A stretch of DNA of 64,000 bases, taken from assembly GCA_964016885.1 (NCBI GenBank), contig CAXHJY010001064.1, positions 10,789-74,788 of the forward strand, given 5' to 3'. Each line of letters starts with the position of its first letter. The stretch's first letter is position 1. The stretch comes from Eledone cirrhosa. Lineage: Eukaryota. Below are positions 46,439 to 63,700 of the stretch, piece by piece. The notes beneath the pieces were generated by a model, which searched no databases, was not told where the DNA came from, and was given only the letters and a program-made list of their open reading frames with translations. The position numbers were made by a program, and so were the translations under genes.

Positions 46439-46576
46439 TCATCATTTTACGATCGTTTCTAGGATATATATGTTTGTGTTGGTATGCATATCCTATAGAT
46501 CTATGTAAAATTTTTACAAACTATCAGAGGGAATATACATACCTACACATATATATGCTGTCTTCAGAAATAATGA
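46439..46576 (-). ncRNA. Type I hammerhead ribozyme (long stem II)
   Basis: tcattattt-CTGAAGA-[~100 nt stem II]-GAAAC-gatc-GTA-aaatgatga. Stem I is 9 bp with one G.U. Confidence 0.8.
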
Positions 46577-47583
46577 TATTTGTCTGTTTGGGAACAGGTT
46601 TTGAATTGACCAATAGAAAGATAGTGAAGGTCAAGATAGTAATATAGTAGTAAAAGAACCTTAATTTATGGGTAGAGGAAGGTAGATTTTAGTTTTGGAT
46701 GGAAAGAATATTATGAATGAAAGATTATTTTCGGGATGAGAATAGGTCATATGCTGACCTCAGAAATAATTATATTTGTTCATTGAATAAAACCAACAAA
46801 GATTTAGTATAGTAGGTTTGTTTGGGAACAGGTTTTGAATTAACCAATAGAAAGGTAATAATTGGCCAAATGGTAAAATAGTAGTAATTGAAATTTATTT
46901 TGGGGTAGAAGAAGGCAGATTTCAGTTTTGAATGGAAGGAGTATGAAGAATGAAAAGTTTATTTTAGGGTGAAAATAGGTCAGGTCAGTAAAACGTAACA
47001 CTAAAAGTTGCTGTTATAAAAGAATAATGCCAATGTAAATATCTAAGGAGACTAAAATTTTACGATAAAAGTGTTAGTGAAAAAAATATATATGGAATTT
47101 ACATCTATGAAAAGAATATAAATTAATTTAATTGATGGGTATATTTATATTGATAAAATTATATTAATGCATATAGATATGATAAATAAGAGTTAGATGT
47201 AATTGAAGAGTGCTGTTAAAGACGAGGGGAAATTAAATAAATATAAAAAGAATATATATATATATATATATAATTATTGTGGAGGGGGGGGTGTTAAATT
47301 TATTAGTGAGAAATAATAAATATATAGAGATTTCAAGGAACATAGAATCATAACCCGAAATTAAAATATTATATATATTTACTTAATGGTATCAATTTTA
47401 GGAAAAGATAGTTGTAAGAAGGAAAGTAAAATTATGTAGTTCATCAGTAGTAGAATATTAATTATAGGTTAAGTAAATTAAAAATAGTTTTTATATTAAT
47501 TTCTAAAATGTATATTAATTACGTTTATAATATTTAAAGGTTTTTATCAGTTTATGATTACACGATATTATTAATTCCTGTCG

Positions 47584-47765
47584 TGGTGGATTGGCAGTAT
47601 CGGTAGAGGGTTTGACGCCATGCTTTCCAGCATAGTTACGTCCCTTTATGATCTGAGTTCAAATCCCGCCGAGGTTGACTTTGCCTTTCATCCTTACGGG
47701 GTCGATAAAATAAAGTACCAGTAATGCACTGAGTAATTGCTGGCCTTGTGCCTAAAGTAGAAACA
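47584..47765 (+). mobile_element. SINE inserted in the Penelope GIY-YIG end
   Basis: 17-bp TSD attattaattcctgtcg at 47567-83 and 47766-82. Confidence 0.9.
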
Positions 47766-59544: not shown

Positions 59545-60190
59545 GAGAATATTGAGAAGCCAGAGGGGATCACTAATGTAGGCGGGAAGCCGCTGGAATT
59601 GGTTGAGGACTTCCTGTATTTGGGAGCAAAGATTGGGAATACGGAAGATGATGTGGTTGAGAGGAAGAGCAAGGCCTGAGCGGCGTGTCACAGCTTGAGA
59701 TCGGTGTGGAAGTCGGACCTTCGTAGAGACCTGAAAATCCGCCTTTTCATTGCTGTAGTGGAGTCTGTGCTGCTGTATGGGTCTGAGACTTGGACACTAA
59801 CCAAGAGACTCACTCAGATGGTGGATGGGTGCTACACGAGAATGCTGAGGATGGCTCTGAACATTAATCAGTATACACTGAGGATGAAAAACTCAGAGCT
59901 GTATGGGAGCATCCCAAAAGTCAGCTCAAAAGTGACACAGAGGAGACTGAGGTTGGCTGGACATGCTCACCGACATCCAGAGTTGACATTGCACTCAGTG
60001 CTCCTTTGGGAGCCCCTACATGGACACACTAGAAGAGGAAGACCAAGGTTAACATATGTTGATGCCCTAAGGACAGACACTGGTCTGTTGGAGATGCAGG
60101 ATATGGCAGCGATAATGAGGGACAGAGACCGCTGGAGAGAACTCGTCCATGGATCTCGAGAATTTTACCCGCCTTAGATAGATAGATATA
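59545..60190 (+). mobile_element. RTE family B 3' end with (TAGA)n tail
   Basis: LELVEDFLYLG and ORF 59695-60177 (ESVLLYGSETWTL, RRLRLAGH, GRPRLTY), then tagatagatagata. Confidence 0.9.
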
Positions 60191-60754
60191 TAGATATATA
60201 TATATATATATATATAAATATATATATATATTATATATATATATAAATATATATATATATTATATATATATATAAATATATATATAATATATATATATAT
60301 ATATATATATATATATATATATATAAATATATATATATATAATATATATATATATAATATATATATATATATAATATATATATTATATATATATATATAT
60401 ATAATATATATATAATATATATATATATAATATATATATAATATATATATATATATATAATATATATATTATATATATATATATATATAATATATATATT
60501 ATATATATATATATATAATATATATATAATATATATATATATATATAATATATATATAATATATATATATATAATATATATATAATATATATATATATAT
60601 AATATATATATATATAATATATATATAATATATATATATATATAATATATATAATATATATATATATATATTTATATATATAATATATATATAATATATA
60701 TATATATATATAATATATATATAATATATATATATATATATATATATATATAAA

Positions 60755-63700
60755 ATATTAAACAAATAATGAACAAACAATTCCTTATATTAAACAAAAA
60801 AAGTTCACTATTTAACGATCGTTTCTAGGGTATATATGTGTTATAATTGGTATACATATTTAACAGATCTATGTACAAAATTATACAAAATTATACAAAT
60901 TATCAAGATTAAATATACATACCTAACTCATATATACGCCGTCTTCAGAAATAATGAAGTATATTTATTGATAATAACAACAATTCAAAATATCAGTTCA
61001 AAATTGACCAATGAAAACACAAAGGGTTAAAAGCAGTTTGGTGTGTGTATATACATGTAAAAACCTTACACATATTTTACAATAATGTGTGTATAATTTG
61101 TATGTGCATACTAAAAAGATGGATGCAAACACAAAATTTCAAGGTTAATATCTCTGTAAGCTTAATGCGCTGATAAGATACGCAATGATACTTATGGAGT
61201 CAAGCATATAAAAATGTTTTTTTCACACATATCAGTATAATCACACATACATGTGCGTATATGCATAAATATACACATAACCACGAACATACAAACACAC
61301 ACACATATATAGGAGCTACCTCTAACAATTTTAAGACAAGGTATAATACCCACAAACATAGCTTTAAAAATGCCGCACTGGCTAATACAACATCTCTAGC
61401 AGAAAAAATCAATAGGTATAAAAATAAAAATATAAAATATGATTTGACCTGGAGTGTGCTCAAAAGAGCCACCCCTTATCAAAATAATAGAAAGGAATGT
61501 AGATTATGTTCCCAAGAACTATTTGAAATAATGAAGTCTAGGGATATCTTATTAAATAAAAGACAGGAATTAATTATATCGTGTAATCATAAACTAAAAA
61601 AAACATTTAAATATTATAAACCTAATTAATAACATTATTCTAGAATTTAATTTAATTTAAATGTTAGTTAACCTATAAATTTAATTTAATTAATATTTTA
61701 TTACAGATGAGAAAATATTATGTAATCATAAATTTTGAAAAACCTTTAAATATTACTAATATATACTCAGTAATTTAATTTATAGATTAATTTTAATTTA
61801 TTTTAACCTTTTATTATAATTTTTTTTTTTTATTATAATTCTTTTACAGATAAAATATAACAAAATAATATCATGTATCCTATGACGGAGAAAGAATTTT
61901 TTAGTATTATAGACCTAATTAATATACATTTTGGAAATATATTTATTATTTGGTTTTAGTTTTAATCAACCTAAAACTTTAATTTTAATTTGCTTAAAAT
62001 TAGTATCCTTGTACAGACGAATTGCAGAATGTCATGTAATCATAGAATGGGATGTGTTTTGGATATATACCTAGTTAATATATTCTGTGCAATTTTTTGA
62101 AAAAGATATGTATATCTATATGTATATGTATATGTGTGTGTTGTATGTGTATCTGTATGTATATTTATGTGACTATATATGTATATATGTGTATATATAT
62201 GTATATATATATATATATGTGTGTATATGTATATATATGTGTATGTGTATGTATATGTATATGTATGCGTATTAATTTTGATTTTTATTTGCATATAATT
62301 ATATTATGCTATTGATGAAATACAATATCTGCTTTATGTATTGTATACCTAATTAACATATACTAATTAACGTATACTATTGAAATAAATATATAATTTT
62401 TAATTTAGTTAACATATAATTTATATGCTACTACCGATGTAATACTTTATTTTATTTTTATTTGGGTTTCTTTTCCCTATTACTAAGTTCATCTCCTAAT
62501 ATTGATACCATAACGTTATTAACTTTAATTTAGTTATAATGTAATTAATAATCTACTACTGTTTGACTTCATAATTCTGCTTCAAATATTATAAACCTAA
62601 CTAATTTACACCTTGGAAATTAATATGTTGACTATCTTTGGTTTAGTTAACATATGATTAATGGTATACTTTTTTATTTTGAGATGCATAGATTTCGTAT
62701 TTCCTAGCACTGAAAATATGTAAGAACATACATTGAATTAAGATACGGAAAATATTATATGTTTCTTGAAACATATATTTACTTTGATCCCCTTCTCCAA
62801 ACCCCCCCTTTCCCCCATACTATTATCATCTGTTTTTGTAAGCGTATATGTATGAATATATGTGTAGGTGGGTGTCTATATAGGTTTTGGTATTTATTTC
62901 TAAATATAAAAATACATATATGAGCATGTAAATATGAATGTAAGATTGAGTGTGTATATATGATTGTACATACATATGTGTGTATATATATGTATATATA
63001 TGTATTATATATGTATGTGTATGTGAATGTGTGGTATGTATATGTGTATGTATATGTATATATGTGTATGTATGTGTATGCTTGTATATAGGAATATATA
63101 TGTATGTGTATATATGTATGTATATGTATATGCGTGTTTGTATGTATGTGTATATGGGTTCTGTATATATTTGTATGTCTCTCTATTTATATGTTTATCT
63201 TCGTATCTATGTGATATATGTGTGTGTGTGTGCACGTATGCATATGTATGTGTTTGTGTGTGTTTGTATGTGTGTGTGTATATATATGTGTATTTGCGCA
63301 CACTCACATACACATATATATATATATATATGTGAGTGTGTATGTGTGTCTGTGTGTGTGTGTGTCTGTGTATGTGTATATATATATATATATATATATA
63401 TATGTATATATATATATATAGATATATATATATATATATATATATGTGTATATAGGTGTCTATGTGTGAATATATGTCTTTATTCGTATGTGTGTATTTA
63501 TGTATGTATATATTTATGTGTATGTATGTATGTGTATGTATGTATGTATATATATATATATATGTATATATGTATATGTGTATGTATATATATATATATA
63601 TATTATTCTTTATTATTATTGTAATATAACTTATGTGTATATGTGTATAAGTGAGGTTGTGTATGTATATATACTATGTGTATATATAAGAGTAATGAAA

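Follow-up and report, generated by a model that had tools for sequence, protein, structure and literature searches.

What would a hammerhead motif with an oversized second arm do in a mobile element, and how might such an arm have come about? The question is raised by a 64,000-nt stretch of Eledone cirrhosa DNA (assembly GCA_964016885.1, contig CAXHJY010001064.1, positions 10,789 to 74,788 of the forward strand; hereafter the window, numbered from its own first letter), where a first-pass annotation had recognized type I hammerheads in the pseudo-long terminal repeats (pseudo-LTRs) of a Penelope-like element (PLE), an assignment upheld here. We propose a model, to which we give a probability of about 0.5, in which the motif belongs to a Hydra-like Penelope element and would act as a slow, mainly dimeric cutter, with a stem II that probably grew by fold-back duplication and is probably kept only for its pairing. 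The six full-length copies and one truncated copy reported previously were recovered at the same positions and on the same strands, and both cut sites predicted on the plus strand had been numbered correctly:

c1, 46439..46576 (-): stem I of 9 bp; CUGAAGA at 46567-46561; insert 46560-46460 (101 nt); G12 at 46459; palindrome 46456-46449; predicted cut after 46448; element end in (TA)n, 61 nt past the cut.
c2, 49207..49344 (+): inverted pseudo-LTR of a 5'-truncated element; predicted cut after 49335; long tail, ending 196 nt past the cut.
c3, 49870..50009 (-): 3' pseudo-LTR of a full-length element; insert of 105 nt; stem I reduced to 7 bp by a short interspersed element (SINE); end 62 nt past the cut.
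c4, 54042..54181 (-): 5' pseudo-LTR; insert of 105 nt; core intact; stem I of 7 bp (SINE); predicted cut after 54051, with an ATG 373 nt further on.
c5, 58905..59059 (+): second subfamily; stem I of 10 bp; insert of 116 nt; GUU triplet; predicted cut after 59049; long tail, ending 208 nt past the cut.
c6, 60804..60958 (-): second subfamily; inverted pseudo-LTR; end 62 nt past the cut; the sole copy in which a stem II pair changes cleanly from A-U to G-C.
c7, 56890..57004 (-): second subfamily; 5'-truncated within stem II, without CUGAAGA and without the 5' strand of stem I.

The full copies share one order: stem I (7-10 bp) is followed by CUGAAGA, the 101-116 nt insert and GAAA, then by a palindrome of 8 nt, one A or U, and the closing strand of stem I; from CUGAAGA to G12 the six inserts measure 101, 101, 105, 105, 116 and 116 nt. 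The CUGAAGA/insert/GAAAC reading given earlier holds as a general layout with two departures, as c2 reads GAGAC (A14G) and c3 carries C15.2U. The core (CUGANGA...GAAA...UH) is intact in five of the six full copies, and c2 is, from its sequence, likely inactive through A14G. The palindrome of stem III is perfect in five of six copies and present in both pseudo-LTRs. Between the two subfamilies, which are ~80% identical and both retain core, palindrome and stem I, the annotated swaps of G.U and A-U in stem I and of GUA and GUU in the cleavage triplet were both seen. A search of the window with a covariance model built from the seven copies retrieved those seven (a match by construction) and no other full-length one. 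When our own hammerhead descriptor allowed a stem II of up to 250 nt, long-insert motifs with a stem I of at least 7 bp numbered five in the real window and none in 40 dinucleotide shuffles (both strands), which yielded two long-insert matches altogether.

In the predicted fold, three helices surround the core and the motif ends in stem I, with a stem III of 2 bp as a monomer and 8 bp as a dimer. Stem II had been described as branched, a description that we ruled out: branched folds carried a Boltzmann weight of 0.000 in all six copies (structures within 3 kcal/mol), and RNAalifold likewise returned a single unbranched hairpin with bulges and internal loops. This hairpin is far more stable than shuffled sequences in the four of six copies folded for the comparison (z -4.9 to -6.9, 0/200 shuffles equal). 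At its closing position, 10.1/11.1, every full copy has a C.A mismatch in place of the usual R10.1-Y11.1 pair, followed by two pairs and then, again in all six, by a C.C mismatch at the fourth pair. The R10.1-Y11.1 pair is conserved but not required, and a natural U.U exists (PMC3088659). As a monomer, the hammerhead fold is 1.3-9.2 kcal/mol less stable than the minimum-energy fold, which is a non-hammerhead structure in four of six copies. The 8-bp duplex of two palindromes reaches -10.0 kcal/mol in five copies and -6.4 kcal/mol in c3 (duplex energy only), in keeping with the earlier suggestion that the palindromic stem III serves cleavage as dimers.

The length of stem II was compared with that of 77 related loci, i.e., metagenome loci encoding relatives at 35-43% identity. 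A sense-strand type I hammerhead lies near the ends of the open reading frame (ORF) in 52 of them, a placement typical of the clade and shared by the present motif. Stem II spans 10-25 nt in the 49 distinct hammerheads concerned versus 101-116 nt here; the second arm has four to ten times the length found in its relatives. A looser search of the other 25 loci found short motifs in five and no credible long one, and the covariance model of the seven copies had no match in the 77. Closure is mismatched in 19-20 of the 49 short hammerheads (U.U in 17, C.A in 2), and one related element (L033:265 and L033:3024) combines a 21-nt stem II with C.A closure in both repeats. Viral contigs held no close relative by pattern or protein, and a single match among genome contigs (L078) was discarded as a chance match in a bacterial gene.

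Published hammerheads give the same contrast in length. The descriptor for minimal hammerhead ribozymes (min-HHR) allows a stem II of 3-7 bp, a loop of 3-10 nt and one extra base on each side (<=26 nt), together with a GAAANNUH core and a 4-nt stem III region (PMC4209133). The present motif shares with the min-HHR of metazoan PLEs the type I topology, the place in both pseudo-LTRs, the palindromic stem III, and an expected dimer cleavage with low activity, but it departs from the descriptor in stem II length, loop and GAAANNUH, with an 8-nt instead of a 4-nt palindrome (PMC4209133). Stem II is therefore, as annotated, far above the usual length. The further expectation that searches with short stem II limits would miss these copies stands for the descriptor, whose limits the insert exceeds. 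It does not account for Rfam, where no hammerhead family matched the copies: because the short hammerheads of all four related loci tested were missed as well, stem II length is not the cause of that failure. Hammerheads of Hydra-clade PLEs resemble ours in the protein motifs of their elements, the place near the 3' end or pseudo-LTR, the CUGANGA and GAAA core, a near-palindromic stem III of 8-10 nt, a frequent 10.1/11.1 mismatch (U.U) and (TA)n targets, whereas their stem II measures up to ~26 nt (counted by eye) and the C.A closure and 4.2 kb unit belong to the present element (PMC8557442). The longest PLE stem II regions among the rows compared are those of Selaginella PLE-X1 and Chara PLE-X1, which are marked as deviating (~48-54 nt in Selaginella, by eye), and PLE-X1_cBra has the same C...A closure; these regions are however about half as long, with a large loop in place of the 40-bp rod found here, and belong to plant elements lacking an endonuclease (EN) (PMC8557442). 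Engineered aptamers are tolerated in stem II (PMC12192606). In the literature searched, no natural hammerhead had so long a stem II, none had been described from the present element family, and no spliceosomal intron lay inside a stem II, although older alignments, Repbase and Dfam could hold similar cases; the available part of a paper on octopus repeats (PMC13282606) does not mention hammerheads or ribozymes. Judged by sequence, the motif appears to be a structural variant of the PLE hammerhead so far undescribed in the literature searched. Survey descriptors for PLEs would miss a natural hammerhead with a stem II above 100 nt, and claims that some families are hammerhead-less, as well as genomic hammerhead counts, may be too low. 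In a 15-kb part of the window, stems II beyond the published limit occur in three families.

The carrier is represented by one full-length element, a second truncated one and pieces of the second subfamily (c5, c6 and c7):

51233..53678 (-): ORF for a reverse transcriptase (RT) with a C-terminal GIY-YIG-type endonuclease, full-length element, with Hydra-clade motifs.
53987..54904 (-): 5' pseudo-LTR of 918 nt that shares 97% identity with its 3' counterpart; its 5' edge adjoins (TA)n.
49815..50722 (-): 3' pseudo-LTR, ending in (TA)n.
46385..49181 (-): second, 5'-truncated element, with the ORF from about residue 340, the 3' untranslated region (UTR) and c1; 97% identical DNA.
61304..61685 (+): endonuclease end and start of the 3' UTR, second subfamily, 86% identical DNA; body of the inverted copy c6.

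The ORF of the full-length element is interrupted twice, by a frameshift (near 52260) and by a stop codon (near 51438). Pfam gave it no family name; 111 relatives were found among 8000 candidates scored, with a top identity of 45-47%, and two named matches are Octopus proteins (40-49% identity), which, along with the octopus-like SINE described below, point to an octopus as the probable host. Its translations contain RWR, DKT, CNCRNKSNC (CxCX5C), CRLC (CxxC) and CNH (CxH), CCHH is absent (by eye), and the endonuclease is C-terminal. Diagnostic of the Hydra clade are RWK, DKT for DKG, a CxCX5C linker, CxxC and CxH motifs that flank the conserved E and N residues, the lack of CCHH and a C-terminal endonuclease (PMC8557442). 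All six free 3' ends run into (TA)n, as in the Hydra-clade insertion preference. A size below 3 kb with a canonical hammerhead, typical of Hydra elements without being diagnostic, was not found; because the repeat unit from pseudo-LTR to pseudo-LTR (c4 to c3) measures 4172 nt and stem II is long, the element was filed as a divergent Hydra-like lineage. In an RT tree of 83 sequences, drawn from unnamed relatives, the element and five database proteins formed a separate subclade (support 1.0). It also differs from the described octopus family Hydra-1_Obim in a clearly different protein and in the short stem II of Hydra-1_Obim (by-eye comparison). Four public runs bearing four organism labels contain 1791, 31, 1 and 18 contigs that span the motif region (depth is not copy number), so the family is repeated and no assembly artefact.

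The 5'-truncated element is joined at 49181/49185 to its own inverted pseudo-LTR, 49185-49530 (+), which bears c2. Two classes of free 3' end occur, one lying 61-62 nt past the cut (c1, c3 and c6, with c7 at ~70-80 nt) and the other 196-208 nt past it (c2 and c5), a pattern that matches the PLE "tail". Because both classes lie downstream of the motif, the copied RNA was apparently uncut at its 3' motif; in vitro, the template RNA of an Anolis element is likewise uncut by its hammerhead (PMC11167929). The position of the long-tail 3' end (49515-49530 (+), 59243-59258 (+) and 53850-53865 (-)) coincides with a short, perfect inverted repeat, GUAGAU/AUCUAC, at which reverse transcription may begin. 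Loose contig ends near the cut site in one run (X7) lie at the GATC sites 46451 and 46498 and were taken as library ligation products, not as cleavage.

How such a motif might work can be drawn together from these observations. A read-through transcript over tandem pseudo-LTRs would bear two motifs 4.2 kb apart. Because a monomer has a 2-bp stem III and lies 1.3-9.2 kcal/mol above a non-hammerhead fold, cleavage would require either the 8-bp duplex of two palindromes or the element's protein. Published PLE hammerheads cleave as dimers and with low activity (PMC4209133, PMC6765202), and that of the Anolis element is protein-assisted (PMC11167929). Cleavage would free unit-length RNA from read-through transcripts, while the RNA copied into the genome would have escaped cutting at its 3' motif, with reverse transcription starting 61 or ~200 nt downstream and passing through. 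With no contact between loop I and loop II to keep, stem II would need only to close the junction and its length would be free; the high stability of the arm could also compensate for the weak C.A closure. The 3' arm of stem II comes close to the reverse complement of the 5' arm, and both arms look like microsatellites, which is what a fold-back would produce.

Eight pairs alternate between Watson-Crick and G.U among the seven copies and none between Watson-Crick and A.C (p 0.004). Outside the motif, the element shows A/G and C/T differences in like number (49 and 52), so the exchanges speak for pairing on the sense RNA. An origin of the G.U exchanges in A-to-I editing was not supported, as run X1 showed no sense A-to-G variant relative to c1 at 2% and A/G differences are not in excess elsewhere. 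At a threshold of at least 2%, 16 motif positions vary in run X1, and in none of the four runs does a variant fall in the core or palindrome. Across public contigs the apex or bulge region holds 9 of the 16 variable motif sites, and apex variation consists of indels and an 11-nt tandem duplication. Overall, support for selection on the fold is moderate.

Several results weigh against a tolerated arm on a working ribozyme. A C10.1.A11.1 closure and a GUU triplet are expected to reduce activity. Two-sided changes were found at 2 of 50 pairs, a number matched by 31 of 500 shuffles and not significant; moreover, the pairing structure was drawn on c5, which favours G.U states. Variability of the core in run X1 (0/17 positions versus 16/123 others) did not differ significantly (p 0.22), and the downstream tail is conserved as well as the core. 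Relative to the c1 fold, the 16 variants of that run comprise three that keep a pair, eight that break one and five at unpaired positions, i.e., 8 of the 11 at paired positions break pairing; of these eight, five lie in the apex or a bulge, one at a helix end (77% of depth) and two are A.C in the basal helix (3-4%). The model also leaves unexplained the C.C at the fourth pair, shared by the six copies and an unrelated motif at 56061 described below, and the exact line-up of donor-like, branch-like and acceptor-like motifs in the long arm (chance ~0.0004-0.0014).

This line-up points to another explanation, tentative and clearly less probable than the model above, by which most of the long stem II would be a retained spliceosomal intron of 84-98 nt whose 3' splice site is the core base G12. 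The candidates were read with the splice consensus (GU donor, branch site, YAG acceptor), and all six are identified by motifs only:

c4, 54062..54149 (-), 88 nt: donor AG|GUAUGU at 54149; CUAAC at 54081-54077; UAG ending at G12.
c1, 46542-46459 (-).
c2, 49241-49324 (+).
c3, 49977-49890 (-).
c5, 58941-59038 (+).
c6, 60922-60825 (-).

Unspliced RNA could then fold the long-armed hammerhead and bury the donor, so that splicing and ribozyme folding would compete. Splicing would restore G12 from the last G of the exon and leave a stem II of 17-18 nt, giving two ribozyme forms. The donor-like G|GUAUGU sits 18-19 bases into the insert and, like a UAG ending exactly at G12, is present in all six full copies, with no other strong donor-like site in the 1235 nt scanned (sense pseudo-LTR and 5' UTR). 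Four copies have a branch-like CUAAC 14-16 nt before that UAG, c6 has AUAAC there, and c1 has lost the motif; CUAAC is partly in a bulge and unchanged while neighbouring bases differ between the subfamilies. The joint chance of these motifs came to 0.0007-0.0013 when 20000 shuffles were made for each subfamily and to 0.0004-0.0014 over 20996 segments of the window, in a test, however, that was designed after the motifs had been seen. Modelled spliced inserts fall within the 10-25 nt of relatives and form a hairpin of 5-6 bp in five of six copies, but this stem is weak (-2.0 kcal/mol, with 41 of 51 relatives more stable), the spliced form of c6 does not fold, and c1-c4 are left with two unpaired 5' bases. 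There is a precedent in the Penelope element of D. virilis, where a 75-nt pseudo-LTR intron ends at helix I and both spliced and unspliced hammerheads exist, and PLEs are known to retain introns (PMC4209133, PMC8557442). The two cases are alike in a short spliceosomal intron of the pseudo-LTR that alters the hammerhead on splicing; that of D. virilis is proven, whereas the one here is predicted, inside stem II and ending on G12 (PMC4209133, PMC8557442). Against an intron, the donor is wholly paired in the predicted fold (unpaired probability ~0) and an AU-alternating run instead of a polypyrimidine tract precedes the AG. The hammerheads of relatives have no conserved donor position nearby, and the 77 related loci contain no split hammerhead apart from one weak candidate. 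No joint skipping the candidate intron was found among the 1791 genomic contigs, which would be expected also under intron retention, and in a hammerhead-like motif at 56358 (below) the same logic would delete the core. Were the arm an intron, two open questions would meet, namely the role of PLE hammerheads and why PLEs keep introns though moving through RNA: ribozyme folding would decide intron retention, which would provide a mechanism for the survival of PLE introns through reverse transcription and a role for the hammerheads.

Two further explanations, each improbable in our view, set the arm's function either higher or lower than a tolerated extension on a dimer-cleaving hammerhead would. 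Stem II could be a module under selection, with the element's RT/EN protein or a second RNA as its binding partner, much as the first-pass annotation had speculated in proposing an RT/EN-binding or dimerisation module. A distal internal loop (GAUAG...UGUA / UACAUAGAUC) that is nearly invariant in both subfamilies while adjoining bases differ, the recurrence of the fourth-pair C.C in an unrelated motif, a 10-nt palindrome in the 3' arm of c1 and the protein assistance reported for the Anolis hammerhead (PMC11167929) would suit such a module. The corresponding palindrome is, however, imperfect in c5, the apex is free to vary by indels, both start points of reverse transcription lie downstream of the motif and outside stem II, and a stem II of 10-25 nt suffices for the 49 related hammerheads; we found nothing that points to the proposed module. 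Conversely, insert and C.A closure could have inactivated the motif, which would then be carried passively in the pseudo-LTR. This would agree with core conservation that is not above that of the flanks at the available depth, the tail being equally conserved, with the non-hammerhead minimum-energy monomer folds in four of six copies, with a SINE in stem I that was passed on to both pseudo-LTRs, and with hammerheads being dispensable for insertion in vitro (PMC11167929). A dead ribozyme is harder to reconcile with a core, palindrome and stem I kept intact across subfamilies that are ~80% identical, with changes that keep pairing, and with four runs in which core and palindrome lack any variant at or above 2%.

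The SINE of c3 and c4 lies in the 5' strand of stem I, in the same sense as the element, leaving 7 bp:

54176..54354 (-): SINE of transfer RNA type in stem I, with a 13-nt target duplication; A-box and B-box read by eye.
50004-50176 (-): the same insertion in the other pseudo-LTR.
47593-47771 (+): another copy of the SINE.

We take it to resemble an octopus SINE, and it could provide an internal RNA polymerase III promoter directly upstream of the ribozyme. The 3' UTR also contains a 234-nt tandem unit (46566-46939, 50210-50584 and 54392-54766), the upstream copy of which bears a degenerate hammerhead 5' half (stem I strand and CUGAGGU) with its own small hairpin. As a second hammerhead, the upstream unit was ruled out by CUGAGGU and the lack of a conserved 3' half.

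Two hammerhead-like motifs of other families were also found in the window:

56056..56129 (+), the motif at 56061: another family; stem I of 5 bp; 45-nt stem II; perfect 8-nt palindrome; 57 nt before (TA)n.
56286..56363 (-), the motif at 56358: third family; stem I of 5 bp; 47-nt stem II; C.A closure; perfect 10-nt palindrome; ~55 nt before (TA)n.

The motif at 56061 has a U.U closure and, as in the main family, a C.C at the fourth pair; upstream of it, no Pfam family was matched in six frames and no coding sequence was recognised. In the motif at 56358, the 47-nt insert has a donor-like GUAAGG at its start and, at its other end, a pyrimidine-rich CAG that falls at G12. A perfect inverted repeat of ~32 bp (56643-56708) forms the 5' edge of the element bearing this motif and resembles a fold-back product. 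Elsewhere in the window, RT ORFs of long interspersed element (LINE) type with a C-terminal PHD finger were found at 37314-39284 (+), 40577-42835 (+) and 19577-20917 (-), the two plus-strand ORFs being part of a 3551-nt tandem duplication. Between c5 and c6, an RTE-like LINE 3' fragment (DUF6451; 59550-60180, +) is inserted in the (TA)n tract.

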